Shown in pieces: positions 28,401 to 47,371 of a DNA stretch of 64,000 nt. This stretch comes from Candidatus Poriferihabitaceae bacterium (GTDB lineage: Bacteria; Pseudomonadota; Gammaproteobacteria; Arenicellales; Poriferihabitantaceae): the NCBI GenBank assembly GCA_965261915.1, contig CBDHDW010000013.1, positions 2,804,561 to 2,868,560 on the forward strand. The letters run 5' to 3'. The notes beneath the pieces were generated by a model. The model was not told the DNA's origin and did no database searches. It worked only from the letters and a program-made list of their open reading frames with translations. Numbering within the stretch: the first letter of the stretch is position 1; the number at the start of each line of letters is the position of its first letter. A program made the translations under genes and the position numbers.

Positions 28401-28486
28401 GGTCTCTTCCGCAGGAATGACGAGGGGTTAGCCGTGGCGTTATTTTCGTCATCCTTAATAATGTTGCTCCGCACCGGTAAGATTAT

Positions 28487-28514
28487 AAAGCCGACCAGCC
28501 ATCTGGTCGGCTTT
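28487..28514 (-). terminator. hairpin downstream of the ATPase-Toprim gene
   Basis: Perfect 12-bp stem AAAGCCGACCAG / CTGGTCGGCTTT with loop CCAT, followed on the minus strand by TTTATAAT. Confidence 0.5.
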
Positions 28515-28519
28515 ATAAT

Positions 28520-30205
28520 TTATCTTAGATGAGAAAATATACTATCAAGCGTTTCTTTCATCTCATCATTTAACTGCTTATTGTCAAGATATTCAACTAA
28601 TAGATAAAATTTTGATTTATCCATTGTGTTTCTCGGTTGATTGGTTTCGTCTAAAAATTGCTCGAAAATTTTGCTGAGAAAATCGCTCATTTTATTGTCT
28701 ATCCAAAAATTATCTGCTGGATTCTCATAAGCAACAGGCGGTATATTGCCTTTTAGAATACGCTCTAATTCTGCTGGATGAGTGTGCGAAATTAAATCAT
28801 TGGCATTAGATTGATTGTTGATGTAGTTCATCAATGTGCTGGGCATGGGAATGTAGTTTTCTATTTCATTACGCTGCCATTGATACATTTTAAGGTCATT
28901 TGGAACATCTTGAAAATCCTTATCCAATTTATCAAATAAAGCAAACCCTTTTAGGTGCGGCAGGTATTGCTTCAAGGCAGAAAAGTGTTTTTTTGCTTTG
29001 CCTATATCATTACCATCAAGCGGAAAAGGATAGAGAGTTGTATTTAATTGTTCAAGGTATTCCTGCTTGTCTAATTTTTGACAAAATGCGCGTATAAATG
29101 CTAAATCAGTCGAGCCTTCATAATATAAGATGAAGGGTCTTTGTTTGGCTAACAAGTATTGTTCATAAGGATATTCCGATAAAAAGGCTTTAATAGATCT
29201 CGTGGTTTCTTTTTCAAACCGGCCCGACATAGAGGAAACAATCAGATCATCTTTAGCGGCATTAAGCACACTTTCTGAATGGCTGGCGATAATTAACTGG
29301 CTGTTATTGCATTTAGCAAAATCGCTTAAACTGTGATAGATGTTGGCTTGCTTAATCACTTCAAGGTGAGCGTCAGGCTCATCGAGTAAGTTAATGGTAT
29401 TTTTGAATGCGCCTAAATAGGCAAACAGTAAAATGGTTTGTTTCGCTCCGCTACCAAGGGCAGAAAGCGACATTTTTTTATTGGCCGCTTCATTATAACT
29501 AAGCTCCAACAAACCACTATTTGGATGATACTTGGGCGTATTTAACTCAATGGCAAATAAATCCTGAACCCTTTTGACCAATTCATCCCAGCCTAGTTTG
29601 TTATTTTCATACAAGTGATAACAAATATTTCGCAACACAGTGGCAGTTTGCCCCTCACTAATACGGCGAAGAATAGAGCCGGTCTCTAACTTGTCTTCTT
29701 TCGGACTAAGCCCAGATATAGAAGGTAAAAAACCAATATTTTCGTTGTGTAAAACAGGCTCAAACTCATAACCATCGATGAGTTTGGTATAAATGAGGCT
29801 ATCGCGCTGATAACTAAATTCAAAACCCACTTGCCATCGCTTTGTTTCCTGCGTTTGGCTATAAGTTTCACCGGCAGCATGGATTTCTATCTTGATGGGT
29901 TTGGTACCTTTTTTCTTTGCTTCACCTTGCCTGGTTTTAGTATTTTGCCATAATTCCTTAAACTCGGCGGCGGGTATGTTTATATCGCTCAAATTTATAG
30001 CAACACCCGTGCGTAGATTTTTTTTAGTAGGATTATCAAGACGTTTTTCAGCCCATACCTTGATTGCCATTGCCAATAGTGAAAATGCCTGCAACAAACT
30101 GGTCTTACCGCTATTATTAGGACCCACCAAAACTACTACTGGTTCAAGGTCTATGGTTTCATCAGCAATTTGTTTATAACCTTTAATCCTAATTTGGGTA
30201 ATCAT
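28520..30205 (-). CDS. ABC/AAA ATPase fused to a Toprim-like (DUF4435/OLD-type) domain; OLD- or PARIS-like single-protein candidate
   Basis: Walker A GPNNSGKTS, signature LSALGSGAKQ, Walker B INLLDEPDAHLE, ASHS; C-terminal FILYYEGSTDLAFIRAF and ALFDKLDKD resemble a Toprim Glu and DxD. Confidence 0.65.
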   Translation of the reverse strand: MITQIRIKGYKQIADETIDLEPVVVLVGPNNSGKTSLLQAFSLLAMAIKVWAEKRLDNPTKKNLRTGVAINLSDINIPAAEFKELWQNTKTRQGEAKKKGTKPIKIEIHAAGETYSQTQETKRWQVGFEFSYQRDSLIYTKLIDGYEFEPVLHNENIGFLPSISGLSPKEDKLETGSILRRISEGQTATVLRNICYHLYENNKLGWDELVKRVQDLFAIELNTPKYHPNSGLLELSYNEAANKKMSLSALGSGAKQTILLFAYLGAFKNTINLLDEPDAHLEVIKQANIYHSLSDFAKCNNSQLIIASHSESVLNAAKDDLIVSSMSGRFEKETTRSIKAFLSEYPYEQYLLAKQRPFILYYEGSTDLAFIRAFCQKLDKQEYLEQLNTTLYPFPLDGNDIGKAKKHFSALKQYLPHLKGFALFDKLDKDFQDVPNDLKMYQWQRNEIENYIPMPSTLMNYINNQSNANDLISHTHPAELERILKGNIPPVAYENPADNFWIDNKMSDFLSKIFEQFLDETNQPRNTMDKSKFYLLVEYLDNKQLNDEMKETLDSIFSHLR

Positions 30206-30265
30206 TTTAATCTTTCCATCCTGTTTATCTAATCATCGGTAAGGGCGTAGAGTTTATAACCTGGC

Positions 30266-30487
30266 TCATCTATTTGGGTTTTCGGTTGGCTTTTCGGTTT
30301 TGTCGTTCGGCTTGGGCATATCATCTGGCAGGATACGCACTACTTTTTCGCCGTCCCAAACAACGGCATATTGTCCTAGCCTGCGCTTTTTTTCTAAAGC
30401 CGCCGCCACGCTTCTATTAAGGGCTTCTGCTATTTGTTGCGCCTTTTTTTCCATGTCTTTGATGGTTGGTTTATCTGATGGCTTCAT
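30266..30487 (-). CDS. small charged protein coupled to the zeta-like kinase (possible cognate antitoxin)
   Basis: 73 aa; ATGA start/stop overlap with the upstream gene (30484-30487). Confidence 0.45.
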   Translation of the reverse strand: MKPSDKPTIKDMEKKAQQIAEALNRSVAAALEKKRRLGQYAVVWDGEKVVRILPDDMPKPNDKTEKPTENPNR

Positions 30488-31062
30488 GTGCGGGCACGCT
30501 CTATAATGGTTTGATAAATGATTTTATTCTGAATGATTATACCCTGCTGTGTTTGAGTGAAAATAACCTTCTCCTGCTTTTGCGAATTATCCAAACACAA
30601 TACGCTATCACATAGTGGCGCATAGTGATGGACAAGATTATTGATGCTTCTGGGATAGCGTCTGGCAATAGAGGTTAGCGCAATATCATGTCCACCATGC
30701 TTAACTCTTTCTGCAACCCGCTCAATAGATAATTGCACGCTCGGCAAGTAGAGATAAATCAGATCAACAAACCAGCCATCTGCCTGTAATTGACGAATGA
30801 GCTTCAAATAACTCCTGCCCGATAAAGTAGTTTCAAAGGCGAAATTTCGCTTACGCGCAACGGCTTGTTTAATTTGCTGTAGAAACAGGCGGTTGGCGGT
30901 TATTTGTTGCTGGGTTGGATCCAGGGGCGACAAACCAACAGCGATTAAGTCGGCGTTAATAAAATACTTGCAAGCTACATTGTTCGCCAGATAATCGAGT
31001 GCAAAAGTTGTTTTACCCGAGCCATTGACCCCGCCAATAATGGTGCAAATGGGCTTGATCAT
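30484..31062 (-). CDS. zeta-toxin-like P-loop kinase
   Basis: 192 aa, Walker A GGVNGSGKTT near the N-terminus, FINADL..., FETTLSG, RVKHGGHDI pattern typical of zeta/AAA_33-type kinases. Confidence 0.7.
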   Translation of the reverse strand: MIKPICTIIGGVNGSGKTTFALDYLANNVACKYFINADLIAVGLSPLDPTQQQITANRLFLQQIKQAVARKRNFAFETTLSGRSYLKLIRQLQADGWFVDLIYLYLPSVQLSIERVAERVKHGGHDIALTSIARRYPRSINNLVHHYAPLCDSVLCLDNSQKQEKVIFTQTQQGIIIQNKIIYQTIIERART

Positions 31063-31207
31063 GTCGAATCCTTAATAACACCAATCTCATCGGTAAGGTC
31101 ATAAAGCTGATAAATCATTTGGTCGATGTGGGTTTTCAGTGTGTGCGTGTATTAGGTTTGTATGAGCCGTAATAATTAGAATATTAAATGGTAATAATCC
31201 TGTTGGT

Positions 31208-31732
31208 CTATTCATCAAAAAGTTCATTTGAAGAAAATTCTTCACCATGAAATATATAAACATCATCATCCCTTTCAGCTTGGTTCTTAATAGGTGTTTT
31301 TTGAGACATATCATTAATAATCAATACTTTTTTGTGTTTTATTTTTAAGTCTTCCAGTTCACTTCCGCAATGCGTAATTAATAATTGCCTTAAATAGTGC
31401 ATTAAAGGAACACTGCATTTTAATTGTTTAGAGGCTCTTTTTATGCCACTGTTTGATTTCTTTAATTCACACAGGATGAAGCTAACATTATCGCTATTTT
31501 TTTGTATAAAAATATAATCGCAATTATGATTATACCGAGATGCAACAAAGGAAGCGTGAGAATTGTCGCCAACATCAAATACGATTATATTGTCATTGTT
31601 TTTCGATAGAATAGTGGTCTTGTATTTATTCGGTTTTTGACCACCCTTTAAGACAAACACCTCATCTTTACAAAATTGAAGTTTATTTTTTTGGACAACT
31701 TCAGCGAAGCAATTCCACAAATTAGTCATCAT
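31208..31732 (-). CDS. small protein with a putative PD-(D/E)xK nuclease core
   Basis: 174 aa; NCDYIFI ... SFILCELKKS gives D-x17-E-x-K in alternating beta-like segments; 11-nt overlap with the upstream ATPase gene. Confidence 0.5.
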   Translation of the reverse strand: MMTNLWNCFAEVVQKNKLQFCKDEVFVLKGGQKPNKYKTTILSKNNDNIIVFDVGDNSHASFVASRYNHNCDYIFIQKNSDNVSFILCELKKSNSGIKRASKQLKCSVPLMHYLRQLLITHCGSELEDLKIKHKKVLIINDMSQKTPIKNQAERDDDVYIFHGEEFSSNELFDE

Positions 31733-33101
31733 TTTCGTTGCTCAATTCTGCTGTTAGATGGCGAGATATTTTGTTCATTTTAATAATAGTATCGTCAAAA
31801 CTGGACATCGCCAAACCAAATTTATCTATATCACATTTTGTCGCACCTCCGTTTTCACAAATATAACCACTTACTTTATCTTCCGACAAAAGCATTTCTT
31901 TTTTGTAGTCTTTATGCTGTGCTAGGAAATTTTCTGTATCGGAAATGTTAGACAACATAATTAAATTGTTTATCTCTTTAATAAAATAATCACTGTGCGT
32001 TGTTACCAATACTTTCAAACCAGCCGATACACACATCGCTAAAAGCCGTGCCATGTGTATCTGGTTTTCAGGATTTAAGTGGCTTTCTGGTTCGTCAATA
32101 ATTAATAATTGATCTTTTTTAGCGATACATTTTAGGAAAAAGTATAAATTGGTAAAACCTCTGGCAGAGGATGATGCTAAATGCAGGGGAATATCAAATT
32201 TATTATCTTTTGTACGTTGTTTAGATATTAGTTTAATTTCATTTTCATCAACCCGATAATACGCATCCATCATATCTTTAATGTAGTCAAAAAGTTTATC
32301 GGTGTTGATTTCTGATGTTTCTTTTGAATGAATGCTTAAATCTCTGACATAGTCTATATTATCCTGAATAGCGACGGCATAACGAGAGGAAAACCTATTT
32401 AGCACATCAAATGGAGCAAATTTACGCCCTTTTTCCCCTTCCATTTTTTGCAACATTTCAACAACACGATTTTTAGCCACATCCAACTCCTTATAAAATA
32501 GCGATATGCCAAATCGTTCGGCAGAAATAATAAATGCTGTCTTTTTAGCCAGCAACAGACCGACAAAAGTATCATTGACGATAGAGTCCATAATATAATC
32601 TGGAATCTTTTCTTTGGTGTTTAAGTTAAAAATCAATTCGCTGCCTTGACGATTAGCATGAATGGCACTCACATTATTATCACCCTTTCCATCAACTTTT
32701 ACTCTCATTCCAAATTCAGTTTTATTGTCATCAATCTCAAAATCAATAGAAGTGTTTTTGAAATGCGGTTTATTAGAACGGAAAAACAAATGTAAATCAT
32801 CAGAGTATTTGCTAGATAACTCCTTTATCATATTTTCTTTTAACACTTTAAATTGTGCATCTGTCATTGAAATAGTTGCAACACCTTGAGTTGATAATTG
32901 TTGTGTAATATCTTGTGTATAAGGGTGCATTGAAATAGTATCCACATGATTATGATCAGACAGGTTATTTAAAAACCCATATATCGCATAAGAAATATAA
33001 GTTTTACCCGAATTATTTTTGCCCGCAATAATCGTTAGATCATTTAGCTCTATTTCTGCGTTTTTGATTGGGCCTAAATTTTTAAATGTTGCTTTTAACA
33101 T
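31722..33101 (-). CDS. AAA_15/AAA_21-type ABC-like ATPase
   Basis: Walker A GKNNSGKTY, Walker B LLIIDEPESHLNPENQ, TTHSDYF; 459 aa. Confidence 0.8.
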   Translation of the reverse strand: MLKATFKNLGPIKNAEIELNDLTIIAGKNNSGKTYISYAIYGFLNNLSDHNHVDTISMHPYTQDITQQLSTQGVATISMTDAQFKVLKENMIKELSSKYSDDLHLFFRSNKPHFKNTSIDFEIDDNKTEFGMRVKVDGKGDNNVSAIHANRQGSELIFNLNTKEKIPDYIMDSIVNDTFVGLLLAKKTAFIISAERFGISLFYKELDVAKNRVVEMLQKMEGEKGRKFAPFDVLNRFSSRYAVAIQDNIDYVRDLSIHSKETSEINTDKLFDYIKDMMDAYYRVDENEIKLISKQRTKDNKFDIPLHLASSSARGFTNLYFFLKCIAKKDQLLIIDEPESHLNPENQIHMARLLAMCVSAGLKVLVTTHSDYFIKEINNLIMLSNISDTENFLAQHKDYKKEMLLSEDKVSGYICENGGATKCDIDKFGLAMSSFDDTIIKMNKISRHLTAELSNENDD

Positions 33102-33330
33102 GTTGTTTTACCTAAATAATCTATATTTTATAGTCATAAATCTACAAATATTTCCTGTTTCCTATTATATGCCATTCTCAATAATGTTTATTTCATCATC
33201 GGTGAGGTCATAAAATTTATAGACCATCTTGTCTATTTGGCTTTCAATAGGCTTGACTGCTGTTCTATTCGTATCACTTTATTCATCATCCCCGCAAATC
33301 TATATTCGTTATTCCTGAGCCCACCAACCC

Positions 33331-33642
33331 CGTCATTCCTGCACCGTTCCGTCATTCCTGCACCGTTCCGTCATTCCTGTACCGTCCCGTCATTTCTGCA
33401 CCGTTCCGTCATTCCTGCACCGTTCCGTCATTCCTGCACCGTTCCGTCATTCCTGCACCGTTCCGTCATTCCTGCACTCGTTCCGTCATTCCTGCACCGT
33501 TCCGTCATTCCTGCACCGTTCCGTCATTCCTGTACCGTTCCGTCATTCCTGTACCGTCCCGTCATTTCTGCACCGTTCCGTCATTCCTGCACCGTTCCGT
33601 CATTCCTGCACCGTTCCGTCATTCCTGCGAAAGCAGGAATCC
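33331..33642. repeat. about 15 tandem copies of a 19-bp unit ending in a complete palindromic element
   Basis: Unit CGTCATTCCTGCACCGTTC (minor variants, one 20-bp copy) from 33331; array ends with CGTCATTCCTGCGAAAGCAGGAATCC (33617-33642). Confidence 0.95.
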
Positions 33643-33713
33643 AGTCAAGCTAAATCTTTATATAAATCCTTCCAATACGGGTTCTTATCTTCAATCAGCT
33701 TCAGTTTCCATGC

Positions 33714-33950
33714 TCACTTCCATTTCTTGATTTGCTTTTCGCGCGTAATCGCCGCATACCTATCGCCATGCAACTCGAAATAGACCAAAAGGGTCATATT
33801 ATATTTCTCGCTAAATCCTTTGACCAAATGATTTTTATGTTCCCAAATTCGTTTGATTAAATCTGAAGTAACGCCAGTGTATAAGGTGCCATTAGGCTGA
33901 CTTGCCAGAATGTAAACGGCGGGTTGTTTATGGCTCATGGCATTAGTCAT
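33714..33950 (-). CDS. GIY-YIG nuclease family protein (small UPF0213/YhbQ-like), ended early by an in-frame TGA
   Basis: VYILASQPNGTLYTGVTSDLIKRIWEHK...REKQIKKWK. Beyond the TGA the same frame reads AWKLKLIEDKNPYWKDLYKDLA* down to 33645, which is the normal family C-terminus. Confidence 0.75.
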   Translation of the reverse strand: MTNAMSHKQPAVYILASQPNGTLYTGVTSDLIKRIWEHKNHLVKGFSEKYNMTLLVYFELHGDRYAAITREKQIKKWK

Positions 33951-33951
33951 T

Positions 33952-33977
33952 GGATTCCTGCTTTCGCAGGAATGACG
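33952..33977. repeat. palindromic element GGATTCCTGCTTTCGCAGGAATGACG
   Basis: Exact reverse complement of the element at 33617-33642; lies 2 nt upstream of the GIY-YIG start. Confidence 0.9.
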
Positions 33978-34114
33978 GGGTCAAGGGTGGCGTTATTTTC
34001 AATAATACCAATCTCATTATCGGTGAGGTCATAAAATTTATAAACCATCTTGTCTATTTGGCTTTCAATATGCTTGACTGCTGTTTTATTCGTTTATACA
34101 AAACACGCTTTTCT

Positions 34115-38300: not shown

Positions 38301-38883
38301 TGTGGTTTTCGGCTTGCTCGTCATTGGGAAATACGACTTGGCATTGTGCTTTTTCATACCAGCGATACAGTTTGTCGTAAAATTCCTTGTTCAGCTCTTC
38401 AACAGAAAAAGCGGTTTTTAAGTCTTCTAGCGTGGATTGCTTGTGAAGTTGTTCAAAACGCTCTATTGCGGTTCTGGTTTTGGCGTTCTCACCTAACAGA
38501 TAGGTAAAGCGTTTGCTGGCGGTTTTCTCTGTAGTTACGCCAGTATCGGTGAAACGATATTCAATGGCAACAAAACTAAATCGCCATTGTTTGTTTTCAT
38601 CATCCACATAAACCGCTAAAGCACCGTCTTCGCTGCCAATTTGCTTGGCAACCAGATTGCGTAATTGCACACGGTTTCTGCTTAATTGGGTGTTGGGCTT
38701 GATATGAATTTCAAAGACGGGCAACGATTTCCCGTCTTGGCTGGTAACGGTACCGAGTTGTTGGAGGGATTCAACATCGTTATTGTCTATAACGATAGGC
38801 ACAAGGTGCTTGGCAAAATTGAATTTATCTGCCAGAAAATCAAGGTAATTTCCTCGGTCATAGGCTTGGTTGAGGAAGTTCAT
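35371..38883 (-). CDS. 1170-aa Eco57I/MmeI/PglX-like N6-adenine DNA methyltransferase (type IIG-like architecture)
   Basis: FLNGGLFECLD, TGSFYTPREIVNYMV, motif I ILDPAVGSGAYP, motif IV VIGNPPY (36676-36687), C-terminal TRD and the typical tail QIDQMVYKLYDLTDDEIKIIE. Confidence 0.9.
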   Translation of the reverse strand: MNFLNQAYDRGNYLDFLADKFNFAKHLVPIVIDNNDVESLQQLGTVTSQDGKSLPVFEIHIKPNTQLSRNRVQLRNLVAKQIGSEDGALAVYVDDENKQWRFSFVAIEYRFTDTGVTTEKTASKRFTYLLGENAKTRTAIERFEQLHKQSTLEDLKTAFSVEELNKEFYDKLYRWYEKAQCQVVFPNDEQAENHSQTSLIRLLTRLLFIWFIKEKGLIKADLFDKDKLQTLIDYEQPSSFYKAILQNLFFATLNRPVTERSFRNTTNGAANSTNYLVTNIYRYQDYFIDSDKDKIIALFDQAPFLNGGLFECLDREASDEEKQAYDNDKTIRPIGSAIRIDGFSDRADNELVFHNHLFFKDTIFNDNKQDDKQDLGLIDLFNQYQFTVEESTPLDVEVALDPELLGKVFENLLASYNPETGQQARKATGSFYTPREIVNYMVDESLKQHFHQHTDLTDEQINALFVDAEFTEQENALDKQQTKALIYAIDGLKILDPAVGSGAYPMGILQRLVLILEKVDAENTHFKQQQIDKAEQIPDEASCASAIAAIEQVFSQQNQHNAYGKKLMLIENCIYGVDIQPIAIQICKLRFFISLTIEQSPNKNKVDNYGIKALPNLETKFIVANSLLPLGEMPKQNDLFEVSIERLQQQLAQVRHKYFSAKTLTTKRKYRAKDKALREHMLAELNESAITPAGETSIKRIVHWDLYNQNAIADWFNPEWQFGVNGFDIVIGNPPYIKEYTNKEAFNGFRTSKYYQGKMDLWYGFACVSLDLLKQKGIECFIAQNNWTTSAGASIFRNKVLRETEIKSFTDFRNYKVFKSAGIQTMTYLLKKEMPSKCYPLKYSLLKDDSIKQKQLSDFLSFNADDDLGEKYTLNFDSSLYYGSLITFNNPRIDNVLNSVLNNDIDYLMENEVANGIHPHYDFVTKKMLLNLDSTFSVGDGIFGINHSELQELNLTEEEKKFLKRYYSDTSKFQKYYPQKSDDKFIIYTDSSYNKAGSLDRFPNLKKHLDKFQGIITSDNKPYGLHRARKEKFFIGEKIAVQRKCPSEPIFTYVDFDSYLSATFYVIKTSRFNLKYLTALLNSKLVAFWLRYKGKMQGNNYQIDKEPLVNIPIPKISKPAQQPFIALVDKILTAKQQGQDTSTLETQIDQMVYKLYDLTDDEIKIIEETK

Positions 38884-39728
38884 TACCTTCTCTGTGCATT
38901 TTTAATGGCGATAATAAGATGGTCAATTTCCTCTATGTAAGAGGTCAAATCCGAAAAACATTTCAATTTCTTCAGGGTCGAGTTGCCTTGCAAATCGACA
39001 AATGCATTTATTTCAGTGTGAGCGATATGATTTCTTGATTCATTAAACTTGGATATTTTGGTATTATTTTCGTTCAAATTAAACGTCTTTTTTACTATTT
39101 TATGTTTTGAACTAAAGGCTAATTCTTTTAGTACCTCCTCTTTCACGTCATCTTCTATGCCAATTTTTTCACCAAAAGCGTACTCCACTTCCAGATGCTT
39201 TTTAATGATTTGTTCTTTGATATGGCTTAACAAGGACACACCTACTAGCTCTTGTTTTTGTTCTGGTGTGATAACATTTTTTTCAGAGAATACTGCAACG
39301 GTATATTTGTTTGGATAGCTTCTATCCAACATTTGTTGCAAGCCATCTTTTATACTAGAATGTTGATCGATATATTTGCTATTGATTAAGAAAGAAATAC
39401 TGTTTTCACTCAAGTTTTTATCCAATTTATCCAAAATACCGGCTATTTTTCCAATGATATTTTTAACATCACTGTTATCATTTATGCCTGTAAGGTGCAA
39501 ATCACAAATAACATGTTTTACCTTTGAAATTTGATGATTCTCTAATTTTTCTAAATCATCTATCTCACCAGTTGACCAGATTACTTTTAAGTTTTCTCTG
39601 GTCAACTCAAAATAAAGTGGCATTATGGTTTTATGCCAAGAAGAGTGATTTTCAGATCCTACCACCAAACCATCAAACAAAGACTCCCCGGAAAAATCAT
39701 CATCAATTATCAAAATGTCATATAGCAT
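38883..39728 (-). CDS. receiver-like N-domain plus C-terminal HEPN-like (Rx4H) domain protein
   Basis: YDILIIDDD, HVICDLHLTG (Asp76), FLINS; C-terminal SRNHIAHT (39018-39035); 1-nt gap/overlap to both neighbours. Confidence 0.5.
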   Translation of the reverse strand: MLYDILIIDDDFSGESLFDGLVVGSENHSSWHKTIMPLYFELTRENLKVIWSTGEIDDLEKLENHQISKVKHVICDLHLTGINDNSDVKNIIGKIAGILDKLDKNLSENSISFLINSKYIDQHSSIKDGLQQMLDRSYPNKYTVAVFSEKNVITPEQKQELVGVSLLSHIKEQIIKKHLEVEYAFGEKIGIEDDVKEEVLKELAFSSKHKIVKKTFNLNENNTKISKFNESRNHIAHTEINAFVDLQGNSTLKKLKCFSDLTSYIEEIDHLIIAIKNAQRR

Positions 39729-39729
39729 G

Positions 39730-41790
39730 CTACATCTCCGTATTAAAAACGAGCTTCAGTATTGCGCCATGACTGAACTCAGCTGGCAACGCCTCGGCTT
39801 CTGAACTGCTATGGGTCAGCCTGCCATAATGGGCTTGCATTATTTGCTCGACTAAATGCAAGCCAATACCCATACTGCTTTCATCGAACCTGCCTGAAAT
39901 AAAAGGACTCTTGGCAGATTCAAAACTCATATTAAAGCCATTACCGTTATCAGCAATAATCACATTTAACTCATTACTTTCCTGATAAGCCTTGATGTAA
40001 ATTTTCCTGGATTTAATCTTGTATTCTTTTAGCCAATACACCGCATTGTCCAAAATATTGGTGAACGCGCCGACAATCAAATTCTTTTTGGCTACGATGT
40101 GAAGATCTTCGGCTACCTCTGTGATTATTTCAATGCTATGGCTATCAAACCTATACTGAAAATTAAATACCGATTGATTGACGATTTTAAGGAGTTGATG
40201 TGAGCTGGTTTTTTTATCTATTTTTATCGCCTGTTTGTAGGTTAAGACAACATTCTTTAGATGTAAAAATATACTTTCAGCAAAGTCATATTTCTTTTCT
40301 TTTAACGCTTTCTCCAGCCCGTCGATTATTTTATCAATTTCGTGAATAACAAAAGTTAAATTTAGACCGGCGTTTGAAGCATGAAGGAAAACATCTTTGA
40401 TATGCTTAAATTCCTTTGAGAAGATTTGTAATTGCGTAATTATTTTTTCTTTTTTCTTGTCTTCAATTTCAAAACTTTTTACCGTGCTGATAATGTTTTC
40501 TACCCTGACAGAAATTTCCCCCTTGTCATATTCTTTGCCAATGTAGGCAAGTTTTAATTGTTCTTTATCATCTTGCCTTAATTTATTGACTATTTCTAAT
40601 GACTTGTTGAGTGCGTTTCTAAAATATGCGAAAGCCTCATTATGTATAAAACCTTCTCGGTTGGTTTTTTCGGTTAACCCTGAACTTCCGTCTCTGCTTA
40701 GCTCAACACTGGCTAAAATCTGATTAAATCCAATATGATCGCCTAGTTTTTTTGCTCTGGTTTTATCCAAATTCAAAATGTCATTATCTTTCCCTTCCTC
40801 GCCATAGTTATAAACTCGCATCCTGTCCCTATAGACCCTAATGCCACCATTTACTTTCAAATAATCCTTGATGTCTTTATCAATTTTCTCTCCCAACACG
40901 GTCGCCAATTTATACTCATAGATATAGCCTCTAAAACATATAGCCCCTAAATCTACAGTAGATTCTATGTTTTCAAAATTATGGATTACTTTTTCCAAGT
41001 CACATTTTGTTATAATCCTAGGCTTAACTTTATGATTATTGTTTGTTAGTAACTTATATTCAAAATTGATGATTCTATTTTTTCTAAACTCAATGTTAAA
41101 TTCGAATAGTGCTCTATGCTTAATATCATCAATAGTAATTTCTTCCTGATTAACAAATAATCCATTGTGATGATAAAGCTGAATTATGAAGTCATCGATA
41201 GATTGAAAAGGGGACTGTAATTTTTGCAAATCACTGCTAATATTTTGAATATCCGCATCTGTAAACTGTTCCTTTAAATCTTTTATAATGATTTTCGTAC
41301 CAGTCGCATTCATCACTTCTGGCACATCATTTTCTATTACTTTTATCGGCTCAATATCATTTAGGCTGTCGCACTCTTCAAACAATTTCCAATCAACATT
41401 AAAATGAACTTCTGGCTTATTTTCAGATTTAGAATAAATCTCTATTTTATTACCCAAGCGATGCACACCTAGACGACCAATGCCTTTTTCACCAAGCGGG
41501 TGCCTATGATACTTTTTTGTTCTTTGCGGGTTTGACTTGTTTTTGCTACTTACGCCGGGTTTTAACCAAACATTTTTTATAATATCAATGCCCATACCTA
41601 TACCATCGTCTTCTATGATAATGCTGTGCGGTGTAATTTTTATCTTGACGGTATTAGCATCTGCATCGTAGGCATTTTTTACTAGCTCTGATATGGCAAT
41701 TTTATGATCGTGAATTAATTCTTCGCCCAGCAGCACAATAATTTTAGGCGAAAATTCAAATTTGAATGTATGTCTCATTGTTTCTTCCAT
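39730..41790 (-). CDS. double-GHKL protein: MORC/MutL-type ATPase module plus C-terminal histidine-kinase-like core
   Basis: N-terminal ELVKNAYDADA, IEDDGIGM, GEKGIGRLG. C-terminal candidate H-box LTFVIHEIDKII, then NILDNAVYW, IADNGNGF, MGIGLHLV. Met5 (41778) gives an ATGA overlap with the upstream stop. Confidence 0.7.
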   Translation of the reverse strand: MEETMRHTFKFEFSPKIIVLLGEELIHDHKIAISELVKNAYDADANTVKIKITPHSIIIEDDGIGMGIDIIKNVWLKPGVSSKNKSNPQRTKKYHRHPLGEKGIGRLGVHRLGNKIEIYSKSENKPEVHFNVDWKLFEECDSLNDIEPIKVIENDVPEVMNATGTKIIIKDLKEQFTDADIQNISSDLQKLQSPFQSIDDFIIQLYHHNGLFVNQEEITIDDIKHRALFEFNIEFRKNRIINFEYKLLTNNNHKVKPRIITKCDLEKVIHNFENIESTVDLGAICFRGYIYEYKLATVLGEKIDKDIKDYLKVNGGIRVYRDRMRVYNYGEEGKDNDILNLDKTRAKKLGDHIGFNQILASVELSRDGSSGLTEKTNREGFIHNEAFAYFRNALNKSLEIVNKLRQDDKEQLKLAYIGKEYDKGEISVRVENIISTVKSFEIEDKKKEKIITQLQIFSKEFKHIKDVFLHASNAGLNLTFVIHEIDKIIDGLEKALKEKKYDFAESIFLHLKNVVLTYKQAIKIDKKTSSHQLLKIVNQSVFNFQYRFDSHSIEIITEVAEDLHIVAKKNLIVGAFTNILDNAVYWLKEYKIKSRKIYIKAYQESNELNVIIADNGNGFNMSFESAKSPFISGRFDESSMGIGLHLVEQIMQAHYGRLTHSSSEAEALPAEFSHGAILKLVFNTEM

Positions 41791-43049
41791 CCGATAACCA
41801 CGAATTCTTCTGCATAAATTTTTCTACTGCTTTTATTGCTAGCAAACCTGCCGTTTTTGGTTCTATAAGGCGTTAAAAACTTGTTGGATATTTTTCTTTT
41901 GCAAACTTCTATCTTGGTGTATCCTGCCTCGAACATGCTTTCGGTTAAATGTTTTGCATTATCGATACGGACTTGCTTGTATTCAGTATTACCAATGACG
42001 AATAAAGCATAACCACCAGGATTCAATAATAAATAAGATTTCTGTATAACTTTCTGCATATCCACAAAGTATTTGGCTGCATTCTTAGCCCTGTTTTTGT
42101 CAACCTCCATTAGTTCGTCAACATTGATAAGCCCTGTTTTGTTTAGTTTGTCTCTGTTCTTATTAAAATCAGAGATATGGAATGAACTACCGATTGAACC
42201 TTTTCTAAAAACCCTAAAATCACTTGCAAAATCAAGCCATAATAAACTCATTTGATGTAAATCAGCGTATTCATAAGAAGTTACATAGGGGGGACTTGTT
42301 ACCAACAAATCCACTTTTTTATTGGTAATTCTCTTTTTCATAAAGTTTCGCGTCTCAATAATGACGCTCACATTTTTGGGAATTATATTTTCCAGATTAG
42401 CTTTTTTCATTACCTTGAATTGTTTATAAAAAGCATCCCAAACATTCACTACTTTCTTCTCATGGTCGATAGTTGGCTTTATTGATTTTTGCAACCATCT
42501 GGATGTTGGCTTAAGGATGTTGGAAAAAGCACAAAGGAAAAAATTTCTATACTTGCTTTTTGCCGAAATACTGCAGTATATGGCTGATTTGAGTTTGTCT
42601 AACTCCTCAATTTGTTGAATATCAAACCAATATTTGATTCTCTCATTAATGTTGGAAAGTGACTTTTGTTTTGCCATAGCACGATTAAATTCATCGGCTA
42701 TTTCAATAAAATATTTATCCAGCGTAGCCTGCTTATATGTGCCACTTTTTACTTTTGCAATAAGAGTAGCAACGGGGTTAATGTCACATCCCCAAAAATC
42801 TTTACCATTTCGTGACGCTTCATAGGCGACAGTGCCACAACCGCAGAATATGTCCGCCACGACATTAACTTCAAATTTCCTAGAAGAAGCGATTTGCAAT
42901 GCCTTATTCGTAATAAATGCGGGAAATTTAGCCGGATATGTATGAATTTGATGCATTTTGTTTTCCTGCTGATGCTCATAATTCCATTGTGGATCAATTT
43001 CTAATGCATCAAAATCAACCCATTGTAAATCCTCGTTTTTTATTAACAT
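41775..43049 (-). CDS. DNA methyltransferase, alpha-type motif order, SPPY motif IV (N4-cytosine or N6-adenine)
   Basis: IHTYPAKFP, motif I DIFCGCGT, CDINPVA, about 180 aa spacer, motif IV LLVTSPPY. Confidence 0.8.
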   Translation of the reverse strand: MLIKNEDLQWVDFDALEIDPQWNYEHQQENKMHQIHTYPAKFPAFITNKALQIASSRKFEVNVVADIFCGCGTVAYEASRNGKDFWGCDINPVATLIAKVKSGTYKQATLDKYFIEIADEFNRAMAKQKSLSNINERIKYWFDIQQIEELDKLKSAIYCSISAKSKYRNFFLCAFSNILKPTSRWLQKSIKPTIDHEKKVVNVWDAFYKQFKVMKKANLENIIPKNVSVIIETRNFMKKRITNKKVDLLVTSPPYVTSYEYADLHQMSLLWLDFASDFRVFRKGSIGSSFHISDFNKNRDKLNKTGLINVDELMEVDKNRAKNAAKYFVDMQKVIQKSYLLLNPGGYALFVIGNTEYKQVRIDNAKHLTESMFEAGYTKIEVCKRKISNKFLTPYRTKNGRFASNKSSRKIYAEEFVVIGWKKQ

Positions 43050-43131
43050 GACCCTGTCTTACAACCTCTATTTGTTTGTTTTAGCATAGCGGGATTTCTG
43101 ATTGTGTTATAGGCCTGGTTTAATAGTTTCA

Positions 43132-43536
43132 TCAGTCGCCGATATATTGTTGTTTTAAGGCGGAAATAACCCCGGCCATTTGGACAAAGTCTTTATCGTT
43201 GTGGAGCAGGGTAACCTCATTCTCGATGGCACATTGGGCAATCAGGCAATCGATGGATGAGCGAATGATAATGCCTTTTTTGCGGCAACGGCTATAGATA
43301 AGTGCGGCGTTTTCATAGCTTTGCCAATTATCTTTTAAGGTATAGAAAGTTTGTGCTTGAAGATAGTATTTATAAGTGGCAACTATTTTTTTGTTTCTAG
43401 CCCCTTGCAGGATTTCGGTGTAAATCAATGGCATCAAGGCGCAATCACCACTGGGTAGGGATTTCAAAAATAAGGCGGATGCTGCATCCGCCTTATTGAT
43501 GGCATTAATCCAAACCGACGAGTCCACTAAATACAT
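43132..43536 (-). CDS. vapC: PIN-domain toxin
   Basis: MYLVDSSVWI (first acidic residue), 134 aa, 1-nt overlap with the upstream antitoxin gene. Confidence 0.85.
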   Translation of the reverse strand: MYLVDSSVWINAINKADAASALFLKSLPSGDCALMPLIYTEILQGARNKKIVATYKYYLQAQTFYTLKDNWQSYENAALIYSRCRKKGIIIRSSIDCLIAQCAIENEVTLLHNDKDFVQMAGVISALKQQYIGD

Positions 43537-43775
43537 TATTCTTGATCCGCCAGGCGATTTTTGCGTAAGGCTTTGTAATCATAGCCTTCGTAAAGCCCAC
43601 CAATTCCTTTTAACTCGCGAATATCAGGCTTGTTCTTTGGTTTACGTTTGGCAATGAATTCTCTTAAGGCAGCGTCTATCAAGGCGCGCCTAGTTTTTAG
43701 GTTGCTTAGTTTTAATGCCTCTTGCACGACATTTTCATCTAAAACAATATTGGTTCTATGGGCACTGTTTAGCAT
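43536..43775 (-). CDS. vapB: VapB-family antitoxin
   Basis: RTNIVLDENVVQEALKLSNLKTRRALIDAALREFI pattern of VapB (DUF2191-type) antitoxins. Confidence 0.8.
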   Translation of the reverse strand: MLNSAHRTNIVLDENVVQEALKLSNLKTRRALIDAALREFIAKRKPKNKPDIRELKGIGGLYEGYDYKALRKNRLADQE

Positions 43776-44019: not shown

Positions 44020-47000
44020 TTAGGTATATGATTGCGAAATGACGATGGTTGGCTGGATGTTTTTAAGTTTTTTTGCTTGCTCTGGGTTATCTTCTATATG
44101 GCGGTTAAGGTCATATGTTTGAATGATGTCCAAGGTATTTTCCAATACCACAACAGGCTGGATATTTTTACCTCTTATATTGTTATTTAATCTGTTGATA
44201 TTTCTGGTTAGGTTTTGAAAGCGTTTCTGTTTAATTTGTTCGATTGCCAGCTTTATTTTGTCTGGTTCCTCGTCATTGGCGGCATTGATTTCGGAGAGAG
44301 CTAGCATTGCTTTTAGAAAGCGAATCGCATTTTCTTCCACCACCGCTAAGGTGTTATTTTGATTGTCATTGACAATATCTTGTGCTGTTTCAGATTTGAA
44401 TTTATCTAATGCCGATGATACCTGGCTGTGATGCCCATCAGGTAAGTTTACTGCCGGGGTGTCGGGGATGCATTTTAATAATTTGGCGGTTTGGATAAAG
44501 CTGTAGGTTTTAATGAAAGGGGCAATGTTATTTTCATTGCCGACATTTTCTGCTTCAGGTTTCAGCATATAAAACCGACTGCTGCCCTTGCCTTCGGTGC
44601 GAGCAAAAACCAGCGTTCCGCCTTTATGGGTAGCGTTTTTCACTGCATTTCTGACCTTGCTCGGCAACCCCTTGATGCGTTTATAGGCGGCTGGGTCATT
44701 TTTTCTGAACTGCCGTATTTCTTCTAAAAACGGGATGGTTTCATTCACTTCTTCTTTGATATTTTCATCAAATATGCCGAATGTATCGACTTCTTCATCG
44801 GTTGAATAAATTTGCGAATCTTCGCCTAAGGCCGAATGAAAGGCTTGCAGTTTAATCAATGCTTTTTTCCGCAGTTCAATATCATCGTCAATTTGCGCGG
44901 TCGGATAGAAATTATGGACAAAGATATGGTTCGCCGTTTGTCCGATACGGTTGACCCGGCCGATGCGTTGCATCAGTTTGGTGGCATTCCACGGCGTATC
45001 ATAATTGATTACCGTGTTGGCTCGGTGCAGGTTGACACCCTCGGCTAATACATCTGTGGTTAAGAGAATTTGATGTCTATTTAGCTTGTCTGCGGCATCT
45101 ATGTTGGCATCAAAATTATTTTTAATGGTTTGCTTGAGTTGATTGCGGTTTTTAGCATTGACGCTGAGTGTTTTTTCGCTGTATTCGGTTTGTTTTATTT
45201 TCTTTGTTAGATAGTTCATGGTGTCGGTGCTTTCGGTAAACAGCACGATTTTCTGCTTTGGATTGTTTTGTTTGTCTAAAAAATTTGGCAGTCGGGTTAA
45301 AAACTCATGCAGTTTTGGGTCGCCGGTTTCGATTATGCCGTCCCAATCCGATTTTAGTTTTTTTAACATGTCGTAGTCATGTTTGACACCATCAATAAAG
45401 CCCTCTTCAAAATCATCGTGACAACAAACAATAATACTGGGGTCGGTTAGACTTTCAGTGGCAATAAGCTCCATTAATTCGTCTTCTTTGTCGTCCAATA
45501 TAAGACTATTTACATCAATGTTTGGGGCGATAATGATTTTATTTTTAACAATCATTGTTAGCATCACCTCTGATGATTTGATAAAACGCCCTAAGGTTTG
45601 CCCAAAGGCATAAAAACTGCTGTCCATTCTTTTCAGTAACAGTGTTTTCATAATACCAACCAAGCGATCAGCAATAAAATCGGCTCTTTTATATTGTTGT
45701 TTGAATTCTGGTTTTAGATAGTGCAAAGCACGGTAGCGGGTATGAAGTAAGCCGCTTTTATTTTGCTTTTTGTTATCAATTTTTTTGATGGTGCTGTCGT
45801 ATAGTTGCTCCAGTTTCGCTTCCAATTTATAGTAAATTTTTTGTGGTGGAGTTGTGTGTGGAAACACAATGCCATGCTCCAGCAAATCTTGTTTGTAACG
45901 CTTGTTTGCCAATAAATCAGTGCGGGTTCGGCGCACCATAAGCGGCGTGATAACGCTTCCGCGGATTTTTTCATACAGTGCTGCTGTTCGCTGACGAGCT
46001 ATGTGTTTATCCGGCATTCTTAGAATGTCCTTATATTCTTTATTTACCTTAGTAAAAAATTTTGCGAGATGGAAATCAAGCGTTGAATTGTTGCCGTCCT
46101 GGAACAATAAAATCTGGTGGTATAAATCATTCGGGCGGTTATTCAGCGGCGTGGCGGAAATGAGCATCACTTTTTTCTCCTTGCCGCCCTTGTCCTTATC
46201 GTGTTCGGTTTTGGTTTTGCAAATGCGTTGTAATTGGTCGTATGCTTCTGCGCTATCGTTGCGAAATTTATGCGCCTCATCGACAATGACCATATCATAG
46301 TCTTTGGCGTTGGTAATATTGTGCAAACTGCCGTTGGTAATAATCTGAAAGGCATCATCTATCTTAAAACTTGCTAAGGTATCCTCCCAGTTTTGTTTTA
46401 GTGCCGGCGGAATCACCAATAAAATTTTAGAACGATAATCAGGATAGCCATTGTGGTAATAAAACTGACGCGCAATTAAAACAGCAATAACGGTTTTGCC
46501 TAAACCGACCACATCGGCGAGAAAAAAGCCATTGTGTTTTTTTAGCATTTGCCAGCCTTCATTGACCGCATCCATTTGATAGGACAGACGCTTAAAGTCA
46601 TCGGGCAAGTCTTTAATAGAGTTCGGGTCAAATTCAATTTCCGCACCAAAATATTCAATCAGGCATTTCAAATACAGTTCATAGGGCGTGATGTTATCGG
46701 CTAAATAGGTTTTTTTGAGGCTGTCTTCGGCGACTTGTGGCAGTATTTCTATGCCTTCCTGCCATAATTTTTCGAACTCGGCAGTGGCAAATTGAATATC
46801 GTTATAGTCGTTTAACAACACATTAAATTCGTAATTAGGACTGCTTCCTGTGCCCAATCCGGCATCGGTGAGGTTTGACGAGCCGGTAATCACGCTGCCG
46901 CCTTTATGCGGGTTGTAGTCATCGGGGCGAAAAATATATATCTTGGCATGAATGGCGCGGCTCGGATGCGCTTTGATTTGCACTTTTTGGGTTTTTATAT

Positions 47001-47364
47001 CCTCAATAAACTGCACAATGCCCTGCTCGGTTTGGGCATCATAATTGGCTTCTTGAACATCAGTGCTGAATTTCTTCTGCCAGTCTTTGATGGTTTTTTC
47101 GCGGTCTCCATTAAATAAGGCTAATCCATCCGCGTGCATTTCTTTGGTTATTTTATCGACATCGATACCCACCAGAATGCGGATGTGGGCGATATTTTCC
47201 AGCAATGGTCGCAGTTTGAAATACCCTGAAGAGCGGAAATAACCGACCAGAACATCAAAATTATTGATGTTTTGGTTGTGCTGAAAAATGCCTTCAAGTT
47301 TGTTGAATAAGGTGTTTTCCTGGCAGTTGGTAAAGAATTTGCTGTTCATTAGTTTTTCCATCAA
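44020..47364 (-). CDS. PLD-family nuclease domain fused to an SNF2-type helicase
   Basis: Single HKD: AIHAKIYIF...VITGSSNLT; helicase motif I DVVGLGKTVIAV, motif II VIVDEAHKFRN, C-terminal TTDVLAEGVNL...QRIGRVNR. Confidence 0.85.
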   Translation of the reverse strand: MMEKLMNSKFFTNCQENTLFNKLEGIFQHNQNINNFDVLVGYFRSSGYFKLRPLLENIAHIRILVGIDVDKITKEMHADGLALFNGDREKTIKDWQKKFSTDVQEANYDAQTEQGIVQFIEDIKTQKVQIKAHPSRAIHAKIYIFRPDDYNPHKGGSVITGSSNLTDAGLGTGSSPNYEFNVLLNDYNDIQFATAEFEKLWQEGIEILPQVAEDSLKKTYLADNITPYELYLKCLIEYFGAEIEFDPNSIKDLPDDFKRLSYQMDAVNEGWQMLKKHNGFFLADVVGLGKTVIAVLIARQFYYHNGYPDYRSKILLVIPPALKQNWEDTLASFKIDDAFQIITNGSLHNITNAKDYDMVIVDEAHKFRNDSAEAYDQLQRICKTKTEHDKDKGGKEKKVMLISATPLNNRPNDLYHQILLFQDGNNSTLDFHLAKFFTKVNKEYKDILRMPDKHIARQRTAALYEKIRGSVITPLMVRRTRTDLLANKRYKQDLLEHGIVFPHTTPPQKIYYKLEAKLEQLYDSTIKKIDNKKQNKSGLLHTRYRALHYLKPEFKQQYKRADFIADRLVGIMKTLLLKRMDSSFYAFGQTLGRFIKSSEVMLTMIVKNKIIIAPNIDVNSLILDDKEDELMELIATESLTDPSIIVCCHDDFEEGFIDGVKHDYDMLKKLKSDWDGIIETGDPKLHEFLTRLPNFLDKQNNPKQKIVLFTESTDTMNYLTKKIKQTEYSEKTLSVNAKNRNQLKQTIKNNFDANIDAADKLNRHQILLTTDVLAEGVNLHRANTVINYDTPWNATKLMQRIGRVNRIGQTANHIFVHNFYPTAQIDDDIELRKKALIKLQAFHSALGEDSQIYSTDEEVDTFGIFDENIKEEVNETIPFLEEIRQFRKNDPAAYKRIKGLPSKVRNAVKNATHKGGTLVFARTEGKGSSRFYMLKPEAENVGNENNIAPFIKTYSFIQTAKLLKCIPDTPAVNLPDGHHSQVSSALDKFKSETAQDIVNDNQNNTLAVVEENAIRFLKAMLALSEINAANDEEPDKIKLAIEQIKQKRFQNLTRNINRLNNNIRGKNIQPVVVLENTLDIIQTYDLNRHIEDNPEQAKKLKNIQPTIVISQSYT

Positions 47365-47371
47365 TTTACGC

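Follow-up and report, generated by a model that had tools for sequence, protein, structure and literature searches.

Repeated methylase gene ends bracket the cassettes of a mosaic defence island in a Candidatus Poriferihabitaceae bacterium

The nearest precedent for the locus described here is the Hma system (Liu et al. 2024, PMC11232893). There, the Hma locus is presented as a 'defence gene insertion hotspot' in Halomonas, with insertions in 66.5% of loci; Septu, PARIS, AAA_21 pairs and GmrSD are found between the operon genes. The paper describes HmaA as an SNF2 helicase with a C-terminal DUF3883/NOV_C PD-(D/E)xK nuclease, HmaB as a DUF1156 methylase and HmaC as a DUF499 ATPase. Here we analyse a defence island in a stretch of 64,000 nt from a Candidatus Poriferihabitaceae bacterium (assembly GCA_965261915.1, contig CBDHDW010000013.1), which we call the window. 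The two loci have in common an operon of an SNF2 helicase-nuclease and a methylase, a marine host-associated gammaproteobacterium as the carrier, and other defence systems inserted. The island differs in having an N-terminal PLD nuclease and a methylase of the Eco57I/TaqI_C type, with no dedicated ATPase, no NOV_C and no DUF499. Repeats of gene termini that bracket the inserts, the main subject of this report, are not mentioned for Hma inserts in the portion of PMC11232893 available to us.

Class-1 DISARM unites in DrmC, DrmD and DrmMI the three domain types seen here (PLD nuclease, SNF2 helicase and large N6-adenine methylase), and for both a methylation-marking defence is presumed. On the other hand, PLD and SNF2 are fused in our locus, the fusion scores only 154 bits against the NCBIfam DrmD cutoff of 610 (E = 4.5e-45), and no DUF1998 (DrmB) or separate DrmA gene was found in the window or in the related loci L056-L063. 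Type III (Mod/Res) and type I restriction-modification (RM) systems resemble the locus in combining a methylase that has a target-recognition region with a separate ATP-dependent helicase-nuclease, and in exchanging alleles between conserved flanks. In our locus, however, the nuclease is PLD and not PD-(D/E)xK, the helicase is of SNF2 type, the methylase is of the gamma-class TaqI/Eco57I/PglX-like kind, and there are no HsdS or Res homologues. BREX differs as well, with no PglZ or BrxC in the island and with 83.6 bits for the methylase against the BREX-1 PglX model, the cutoff of which is 500.

Integron cassette arrays have an integrase (IntI), attI and attC sites, and co-oriented promoter-less cassettes behind a fixed point, each bounded by repeats. 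The likeness of the island to such arrays is in layout only: its cassettes are co-oriented, there is one more repeat than there are cassettes, and the content varies between close relatives. Unlike an integron, the island gave no integrase match, and its repeats are pieces of coding sequence with no conserved hairpin and with ragged limits.

A literature search for a PLD-SNF2/methylase system already named, or for repeated gene ends within islands of defence genes, returned only the Hma hotspot and the label C3a139 'HKD+Snf2' (Shah et al. 2018, PMC6546367). The latter was defined solely from its position next to type III CRISPR-cas cassettes, seen in 4 genomes, and the portion of that paper available to us describes neither a function nor a methylase partner for it. 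As far as could be found, the repeat-bracketed, integrase-free cassette architecture is previously undescribed; defence islands and embedded defence genes were already known.

Read along the minus strand, the island consists of a ThiF pseudogene, a PLD-SNF2 fusion gene, vapB, vapC, and genes for a 424-aa methylase, a 686-aa GHKL protein, a 281-aa protein and a 1170-aa methylase. These are followed by a TPR gene, a GIY-YIG gene, PD-T4-4 A and B, a zeta-like kinase gene with a 73-aa partner, and a gene for a 561-aa AAA_15/AAA_21 ATPase. Below, the PLD-SNF2 and 1170-aa methylase genes are called the core pair, and the units behind the methylase are called cassettes 1 to 5 (Table 1). We observed that the cassettes stand at gene boundaries, co-stranded and bracketed by repeats, that the content varies between near-identical genomes, and that the borders of shared blocks are repeats. 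We consider it fairly probable that the locus is a composite, integrase-free cassette array which grows and swaps its parts by recombination at gene-terminus repeats, a reading that is in part observed and in part deduced. More tentative is a specific version of it that we regard as a serious possibility. Here the ends of the methylase gene (its last ~60-170 nt and its first 27 nt) would act as portable recombination anchors and as translation-initiation linkers, in an integron-like array with read-through expression and exchange between co-resident species.

The evidence begins with the repeats. In a search for repeats, the final ~100 nt of the methylase gene were found again further downstream (families D3 and D4). 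With an nhmmer nucleotide profile built on the conserved 179-nt block at the methylase 3' end, we found six copies, R0 to R5, in the 64-kb window. All of them are on the minus strand and inside the island, and they flank each of the five cassettes; what is repeated around a cassette is the final 60-100 nt of the gene. The same picture was obtained independently by tblastn and by a peptide regular expression (..QMVYKLYDLTDDEI..). R1 and R2 are 90% identical over 99 nt (family D4). R5 overlaps a 17-bp hairpin at 28482-28519 (-29.5 kcal/mol, z = -6.1), which extends 7 nt beyond the copy, to the stop codon of the OLD-like gene of cassette 5, and is likely the operon terminator.

Between the 3' end of R (ATTATTGAGGA or AAGGA) and the ATG there are 7-9 nt in the case of the TPR gene, the zeta gene and the first cassette genes of several relatives. 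Besides, the TPR start overlaps the methylase stop, and the zeta start overlaps the stop of R3, in both cases as ATGA; AAGGA in R3 is a candidate ribosome-binding site. This spacing and these overlaps suggest that R doubles as a translation-initiation region. The 3' edge of R4 holds the ATG of the OLD-like gene, where the R motif is degenerate and about 13 nt from the ATG.

For comparison we used close relatives that all come from two metagenome assemblies of one community. The contexts of intact ThiF and ribA orthologues were reached via exact-protein look-ups; a contig scan with the GlpD neighbour yielded no close relative, its best match being 78% on a 1.9-kb contig. The sister genome shares positions 25165-33379 at 99.78% identity. 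There, a 120-aa open reading frame (ORF) replaces the TPR gene, the specificity region of the methylase is unrelated, the 4.2-kb triad of the 424-, 686- and 281-aa genes is missing so that vapC abuts the methylase, and PLD-SNF2 is separated from VapBC by insertion sequence (IS) elements and an inversion. Five related genomes have the same scaffold with different modules, which are variably present or absent across L056, L057, L060 and L063. The relatives carry 4-8 R copies around different cassettes, and the blocks of homology shared by two genomes have a start or an end within an R copy.

Outside the sister genome, the identities of single blocks to the window range from 86% (PLD-SNF2) to 97.3-97.5% (triad and N-terminal part of the methylase). 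For example, one genome is 97.3% identical over positions 36673-42067 but only 82% in its ribA-DinB backbone. Blocks at 97% against backbones at about 82% among relatives in one community point to recent exchange of single modules between species, and suggest that the exchange is active. Cargo in other genomes of the community includes a reverse transcriptase, a 278-aa and SLOG pair and a 188-aa and 71-aa pair, and their islands are flanked by MFS/lipase genes, by DAO/TRAP-transporter genes or by AraC/DJ-1. The island of L063 holds a 508-aa reverse transcriptase directly behind the methylase. At 16138-20065 it has eight copies of the methylase 3' end, four of them as ~340-nt tandem units, together with three GIY-YIG genes.

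A metagenome scan with an alignment of five methylases added 80 distant loci (33-47% identity). Each locus with at least 500 nt downstream (39 loci) was queried with the final 150 nt of the methylase gene that it carries. An extra same-strand copy was found in 5 of the 39, adjoining an OLD-like AAA_15/21 ATPase, Y1 transposase-like genes or a DUF1016-like nuclease; duplication in ~13% of distant loci suggests that it is not a one-off. In L080, L081 and L104 (33-46% identity), genes of IS200/RAYT-like Y1 transposases stand exactly behind the methylase, each after a 3'-end copy ending in ..KIIESS and a stop codon, which suggests that Y1 elements target the methylase 3' end or are carried with it.

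Table 1. Features of the island and its borders in window coordinates, with the basis of each assignment
Feature	Position	Strand	Basis
Core gene 1: PLD(HKD) nuclease-SNF2 helicase fusion, 1109 aa, ATG at 47349	44020..47349	-	Pfam PLDc_2, RE_NgoFVII, SNF2-rel_dom, Helicase_C
Core gene 2: Eco57I/PglX-like N6-adenine DNA methyltransferase, 1170 aa	35371..38883	-	Pfam Eco57I, N6_Mtase, TaqI_C
R0, methylase gene end	35372-35550	-	179-nt conserved 3' block
R1, after TPR gene, reads into palindrome (..IIENNATLDPVIP)	33994..34073	-	nhmmer E = 3.1e-13; tblastn E = 2e-5
R2, before PD-T4-4 (..IESQIDKMVYKFYDLTDDEINIIENGI, stop)	33170..33247	-	nhmmer E = 7.6e-15; tblastn E = 0.002
R3, before zeta (..IDQMIYQLYDLTDEIGVIKDST, stop)	31060..31161	-	nhmmer E = 3.3e-16; tblastn E = 1.2e-4; alignments
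R4, before OLD-like gene (..YKLYALTDD, stop)	30203..30286	-	nhmmer E = 7.6e-7; tblastn E = 0.15; regex match
R5, terminal remnant after OLD-like gene	28448..28512	-	nhmmer E = 2.6e-7, model positions 108-174
Cassette 1: 7 TPR repeats and C-terminal two-transmembrane region, 394 aa	34190..35374	-	Pfam TPR_1 E = 1e-75
Cassette 2: GIY-YIG nuclease gene between palindromes, and tandem array	33254..33978	-	GIY-YIG 33714-33950, Pfam E = 1e-12
Cassette 3: PD-T4-4	31208..33101	-	A, ATPase, 459 aa, 31722-33101; B, 174 aa, 31208-31732
Cassette 4: zeta-toxin-like P-loop kinase, 192 aa (30484-31062), and overlapping 73-aa ORF (30266-30487)	30266..31062	-	Pfam Zeta_toxin, AAA_33
Cassette 5: predicted class-1 OLD-like nuclease, 561 aa, ABC-type ATPase and Toprim-like C-terminal domain	28520..30205	-	Pfam AAA_15/AAA_21
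VapBC type II toxin-antitoxin	43132..43775	-	VapC PIN 43132-43536, VapB 43536-43775
27-nt copy of core methylase 5' end (ATGAAACTATTAAACCAGGCCTATAAC, encodes MKLLNQAYN)	43106..43132	-	Overlaps vapC stop; junctions vs L056, L057, L061
Embedded triad	38883..43049	-	Pfam, PADLOC
Triad gene: beta-class N6/N4 methylase, 424 aa	41775-43049	-	Pfam, PADLOC
Triad gene: double-GHKL ATPase, 686 aa	39730-41790	-	Pfam, PADLOC
Triad gene: HEPN-motif protein, 281 aa	38883-39728	-	RNxxAH motif
ribA (GTP cyclohydrolase II) pseudogene, chromosomal flank	27858..28395	-	Pfam GTP_cyclohydro2 on two fragments; three-frame translation
Truncated half of dispersed palindromic element (..GTCATTCCTGCGGAAG), left junction of the island	28406..28426	-	Repeat family D7
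ThiF/MoeB-like pseudogene	47372..47842	-	Pfam ThiF; alignment to intact L061 gene
Right border zone: two ~110-nt MITE-like copies flanking a 380-nt segment	47844..48447	.	Repeat family D5, 87%

The PLD-SNF2 protein has its best profile match in PADLOC C3a139 'HKD+Snf2' (PDLC01075, E = 1.8e-52, residues 35-870), and also matches the PADLOC models DrmD (E = 3e-37), HmaA (E = 7e-33) and, in part, DrmA (E = 1e-19). Its motifs HAKIYIF...GSSNLT (PLD), GLGKT (Walker A) and DEAH are intact in translation. In the 1170-aa methylase, where DPAVGSG and NPPY are intact, a conserved N-terminal part (36673-38883) is followed by a variable specificity region (35551-36672) and by the conserved 3' block R0. A PADLOC match to REase_MTase_IIG (E = 5e-69) lies mostly over the methylase and TaqI_C parts, and that to DrmMI (E = 1e-19) is partial; sequence matches in the PDB (CamA, BseCI, PglX/BrxX) cover residues 659-1159 only.

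In the alignment of the five methylases, ~736 N-terminal aa (through NPPY) and ~55 C-terminal aa are conserved, and the ~380 aa between them fall into 3 alleles; positions 35551-36672 show no nucleotide homology to L056, L057 or L060. Conserved arms around three alleles are the signature of specificity swapping by recombination. Among the 80 distant loci, 62 have a PLD-SNF2 homologue on the strand of the methylase (upstream in 60, downstream in 2), and 17 of the other 18 have less than 1.6 kb of upstream sequence. A cultured Prevotella has the same pair, and directly behind its methylase stand Septu-like genes for an ATPase and an HNH protein. Given the domains and the specificity swapping, PLD-SNF2 and the methylase are predicted to form a methylation-guided restriction system.

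If so, the specificity region of the methylase would determine the sequence at which host DNA is marked, and the PLD-SNF2 protein, driven by ATP, would attack DNA that has no mark, as in type III Mod/Res or class-1 DISARM (DrmMI/DrmD/DrmC). The specificity region would be exchanged via recombination between the conserved N-terminal part and the ~170-nt 3' block. The other defence modules of the island share one strand and are placed precisely between genes, where in many cases a stop codon overlaps the next start codon. The first R copies probably arose from one-sided homologous recombination with an illegitimate second join, and from then on could be reused as movable stretches of homology in recombination that is either RecA-type or homology-facilitated and illegitimate. 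Promoter-less cassettes might thus be added, swapped and lost between related genomes via R, with the 3' end of R providing a ribosome-binding site to the first gene of a cassette. Transcription would read through from upstream and stop at the R5 hairpin.

Several observations weigh against a recombining array of this kind. No recombination event was directly observed, and the R copies could be passive scars. The close relatives, from the two assemblies of a single community, are not independent lineages, and among the distant loci the 3'-end duplication recurs in only the ~13% given above and is not the rule. Folding of R0, R1 and R3 was not significant (z = -1.25 to +0.63); copies with no special structure argue against an attC-like site. 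R has ragged 5' limits (model positions 71-123), which decay or illegitimate joins would be expected to leave. PD-T4-4 and GIY-YIG start away from the end of R, which means that the ribosome-binding-site role is not universal, and a promoter/terminator scan of the sequence gave counts near the shuffle expectation. As for the core pair, residues 1-428 of the methylase matched no nuclease family, and it is not a proven type IIG RM enzyme, a kind in which an endonuclease domain is fused to the methylase and specificity domains; its functional link with PLD-SNF2 is putative.

The strongest alternative, which we consider somewhat unlikely, takes the R copies as functionless scars: each incoming methylase allele with its downstream gene left the previous 3' end behind, by one-sided homologous recombination with an illegitimate second join. 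The ragged 5' limits, the wide range of R divergence (63-90%) and the lack of structure in R agree with this. Likewise, the zeta start overlapping the R stop shows that zeta once stood directly behind a full methylase, and in L080 an OLD-like ATPase stands directly behind a full methylase. However, scars explain the origin of R and not its retention, since all relatives keep the 3' end including the GAGGA-ATG spacing, and the block boundaries between genomes coincide with R. The mechanism overlaps that of the recombining array and differs from it mainly in the reuse of R.

A second alternative concerns cassette 2, which is probably a selfish element. The GIY-YIG gene is flanked by palindromic elements at 33616-33648 and 33951-33978 (inverted repeat I3, 100%). 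At 33330-33628, TRF found the 19-nt unit CCGTCATTCCTGCACCGTT repeated in tandem 15.7 times; this array derives from one palindrome arm and is of another length in the sister genome. Conceivably, though improbably, the duplications are driven by a selfish element that has the methylase 3' end as its target and takes cassettes along with it, namely GIY-YIG with palindromes here and Y1 (IS200/RAYT-like) elsewhere. All five GIY-YIG genes inside these islands are preceded by an R copy reading into a palindrome (..IIENNATLDPVIPA), and L063 has tandem R units, three of them each with a GIY-YIG gene behind. The GIY-YIG gene of L065, upstream of an intact ribA and outside any island, has no R copy. The 90% identity of R1 and R2 around the GIY-YIG gene of the window, and the R copies flanking the Y1_Tnp-like genes of L080, L081 and L104, also fit. 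On the other hand, PD-T4-4, zeta and the OLD-like gene have R but no such nuclease or transposase. The GIY-YIG protein is a bare catalytic domain of just 78 aa here and 78-101 aa across copies, and the palindromic element also occurs away from R, at 17249, 43985 and 48163.

Between the core genes lie two further modules. A PIN toxin (PF01850, E = 4e-12, 47.2 bits vs cutoff 23.6) with a VapB antitoxin gene upstream (PF09957, E = 3e-15, 56.2 bits vs cutoff 23.4), overlapping by 1 nt, makes up a type II toxin-antitoxin system. VapBC is found between PLD-SNF2 and the methylase in L057 and L061-L063 as well, and upstream of the methylase in L056.

L056 and L057 do not have the triad, and in both vapC directly adjoins the methylase. 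In the window, the triad is flanked by a direct repeat, formed by the real methylase start (ATGAACTTCCTCAACCAAGCCTATGAC, at 38883) and the 27-nt copy of that start, which is 26/27 identical to the methylase start of the triad-free sister genome. The same triad is present in the distant locus L152 (4633-8864), beside a type I HsdR. In the 686-aa protein, an N-terminal MORC/BbrUII-like GHKL domain is joined to a C-terminal histidine-kinase-type HATPase_c domain. It does not qualify as a BbrUII/HgiDII enzyme, with 114 bits against the NF050001 cutoff of 550 and a match of residues 17-240 to positions 9-225 of 659 only. The 281-aa family is rare (31 representatives among 1.8 billion proteins); it has weak HEPN-family matches, and the RNxxAH (HEPN) motif is invariant in 24 homologues. 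Its conserved residues D4, D9, D76, S117 and K150 form a receiver-like pattern. A receiver domain was rejected, as hhalign against CheY gave a non-significant probability of 0.8% and a PDB profile search had no match; a single-sequence structure model was unusable (predicted local distance difference test, pLDDT, 40). The triad may be a candidate for an undescribed methylation-linked, two-component-style abortive-infection system, to go by its predicted domains.

The remaining cassettes were compared with known defence systems. In cassette 1, the C-terminus of the TPR protein has a weak SLATT_4 match (E = 0.01), and a homologue stands behind the methylase in L060 and L075. Protein A of cassette 3 belongs to PD-T4-4_A (PADLOC PDLC04033, E = 1e-109), its residues 3-450 aligning to positions 2-455 of the 460 in the profile; the overlapping 174-aa ORF has weak matches to PD-T4-4_B (E = 2.4e-5) and PDC-M47B (E = 8e-6). 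The kinase of cassette 4 scores 36.6 bits with Zeta_toxin (cutoff 22.3). The 73-aa ORF downstream has no family match, and the pair is kept in at least 9 related contigs, which makes it a candidate toxin/partner pair. In an epsilon/zeta system, an epsilon-type antitoxin would be expected upstream. Pfam searches with the 73-aa ORF, PD-T4-4_B and the C-terminus of the OLD-like protein gave nothing significant.

The preliminary description of this DNA had presented the locus as a single AT-rich defence island of about 19 kb. The defence character was borne out by family scans, which identify PD-T4-4, VapBC, methylases, PLD-SNF2 and the OLD-like ATPase. The content, said to be entirely defence- or toxin-like, is mostly so; it also includes the GIY-YIG/palindrome element and the 19-nt tandem array. 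All fourteen sizeable ORFs between 28520 and 47364 are indeed on the minus strand. The computed G+C content of 28405-47371 is 0.380, compared to 0.467 for 1-21490 and 0.472 for 48448-64000. The profile in 1-kb windows is not uniform and differs between island and outside (Mann-Whitney p = 4e-17). The dip, however, is patchy by module, and the earlier estimate of one third G+C or less holds for the methylase specificity region (0.305), PD-T4-4 (0.32) and the triad (0.32-0.35, with 0.32 for the 281-aa gene), and not for PLD-SNF2, VapBC, the N-terminal part of the methylase and zeta (0.41-0.44). As had been said, no integrase or tRNA is visible. The integrase family scan, which covered the 14 called minus-strand genes and the flanking fragments, had no match, and neither tRNA, tmRNA nor Rfam families were found in the window. 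Transposase traces are limited to IS fragments at 22197-24335, outside the island, and the repeat search found no att-type direct repeat pairing the two ends of the island.

At the left edge, the 5' truncation of ribA noticed earlier was confirmed. Positions 27222-28395 align with 10294-11436 of L065, a 2.92-Mb relative, at 82% nucleotide identity. This relative has an intact ribA (10001-10831) in a backbone of GIY-YIG - ribA - DinB - ... - aminotransferase with no island. The alignment begins at position 294 of the intact 276-aa orthologue, from 28395 downwards, and therefore the first 293 nt are gone; the rest carries frameshifts and one stop. Thus, ribA is backbone and not island. Its break abuts the half palindrome GCAGGAATGACG, which was rightly recognised at 28411-28422. 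This half is part of a dispersed palindromic element that matches the window 21 times, where 0.25 matches would be expected. The junction type 'R + ENNAT.. + palindrome' is also found at R1. ribA may have been truncated when, or after, the array joined the chromosome at the palindromic element. Further left, decay is seen at 26901-27140 and 27203-27775, with a class-III aminotransferase reduced to its last 240 nt, and the window does not have two genes that the 2.92-Mb relative carries between DinB and the aminotransferase.

At the right edge, the claim that the island cuts the 3' end of moeB/thiF failed. Alignment with L061 showed that the last ~40 nt of the gene and its junction with PLD-SNF2 are kept, and that the damage is an internal deletion of ~280 nt and a 2-nt insertion. 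Two relatives (L061-L063) have an intact 253-aa ThiF gene 11 nt upstream of PLD-SNF2 (92-93% identical), with AraC/DJ-1 on its upstream flank, unlike the window. Since ThiF is intact and adjoins PLD-SNF2 in another chromosomal context, it travels with the island and was not the insertion target; it would be old, decaying cargo. Intact paralogues of both pseudogenes are present elsewhere in the same 3.39-Mb genome (P0055 and P0224). Beyond ThiF, copies of an element resembling a miniature inverted-repeat transposable element (MITE), with ~10-nt terminal inverted repeats (GCTTGTCG / CGACAAGC), occupy 47844-47954 and 48337-48447, and a third is in L057 (14026-14137). L061 has neither copy at the corresponding sites. 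Homology to relatives continues up to ~48334 and stops there, which sets the unit at ~28396-48334, or ~20 kb.

It is therefore very improbable that the locus arose as a single ~19-kb island, inserted once between ribA and moeB and destroying both adjacent gene ends. Such an event would agree with the lower overall G+C (0.38 vs 0.47), the common orientation of all genes, the 293 nt missing from ribA at the junction and the pseudogenes on both flanks. However, the ThiF 3' end and its junction are preserved here and intact elsewhere in L061-L063, G+C varies by module from 0.305 to 0.44, a 99.8%-identical sister genome differs by whole modules, and blocks are 86-97% identical to different relatives. 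The empty site (intact ribA ... moeB) that a single insertion predicts was not found in the reachable relatives, and the intact ribA of the 2.92-Mb relative is not beside moeB.

Other parts of the window also vary. A 3.7-kb block of IS transposase fragments at 21491-25165 (DDE_5, DDE_Tnp_1, DUF772), not in the sister genome, forms an indel of its own at 3 kb to the left of the island. A second, small cluster of defence and toxin-antitoxin genes lies at ~17000-21500. It contains an orphan N6_N4 methylase (18719-19669), with DUF6680, HicB and HicA as neighbours according to the sister-genome annotation and a copy of the palindromic element at 17249. In the sister genome (L066, 2524-4317), a GmrSD-like gene (type IV restriction) adjoins glpD; the window has intact TRAP transporter genes dctPQM at this site, and thus there is another strain-specific defence insertion nearby.

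Individual cargo was compared with PD-T4-4, VapBC and class-1 OLD nucleases (P2 Old), the last of which have an ATPase plus Toprim architecture. The 561-aa protein of cassette 5 has PADLOC matches of the Old/GajA/AriA type. An AlphaFold2 model built from 35 homologues (pLDDT 85) had as top full-length Foldseek matches the OLD nuclease 6p74 (E = 7.5e-13), GajA (Gabija) and the retron Eco8 effector, and the Toprim-type residues E363-G364 and D425 are invariant in the 35 homologues. These fold matches and residues point to a predicted OLD-family ATPase-nuclease, of class 1 by its ATPase, predicted Toprim domain and stand-alone gene. A three-component, Hma-like helicase-methylase-ATPase system with this protein as its third subunit, separated by later insertions, was rejected: the first and last genes of the island are a helicase and an ATPase, an ATPase homologue stands directly behind the methylase in L080 (E = 1e-108) and PLD-SNF2 matches HmaA, but the homologue occurs in just 1 of the 80 distant loci, L060 does not have it, the protein folds as an OLD nuclease, in Rhodoflexus, Elusimicrobiota and Saprospiraceae (three other phyla) members of its family stand alone, surrounded by housekeeping genes, and the Hma components are of different families (DUF3883, DUF1156, DUF499; PMC11232893). 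One distant locus in 80 and lone occurrence elsewhere mark the ATPase as cargo and not as a third subunit.

The entry of new systems into defence islands without integrases is poorly understood, and the locus offers a concrete, testable route. In the route proposed here, an RM-like operon would give transcription, and pieces of its methylase would give homology and a ribosome-binding site. If this is true, any promoter-less defence gene behind such a piece could be stacked, or moved to any genome with a related methylase. Even with repeats that are no more than scars, the locus clearly documents how a defence island was put together step by step. If the route is confirmed, orphan methylase 3' ends would be a cheap search handle for new cargo, such as the TPR protein with two transmembrane segments, the HEPN triad and the 278-aa/SLOG pair.

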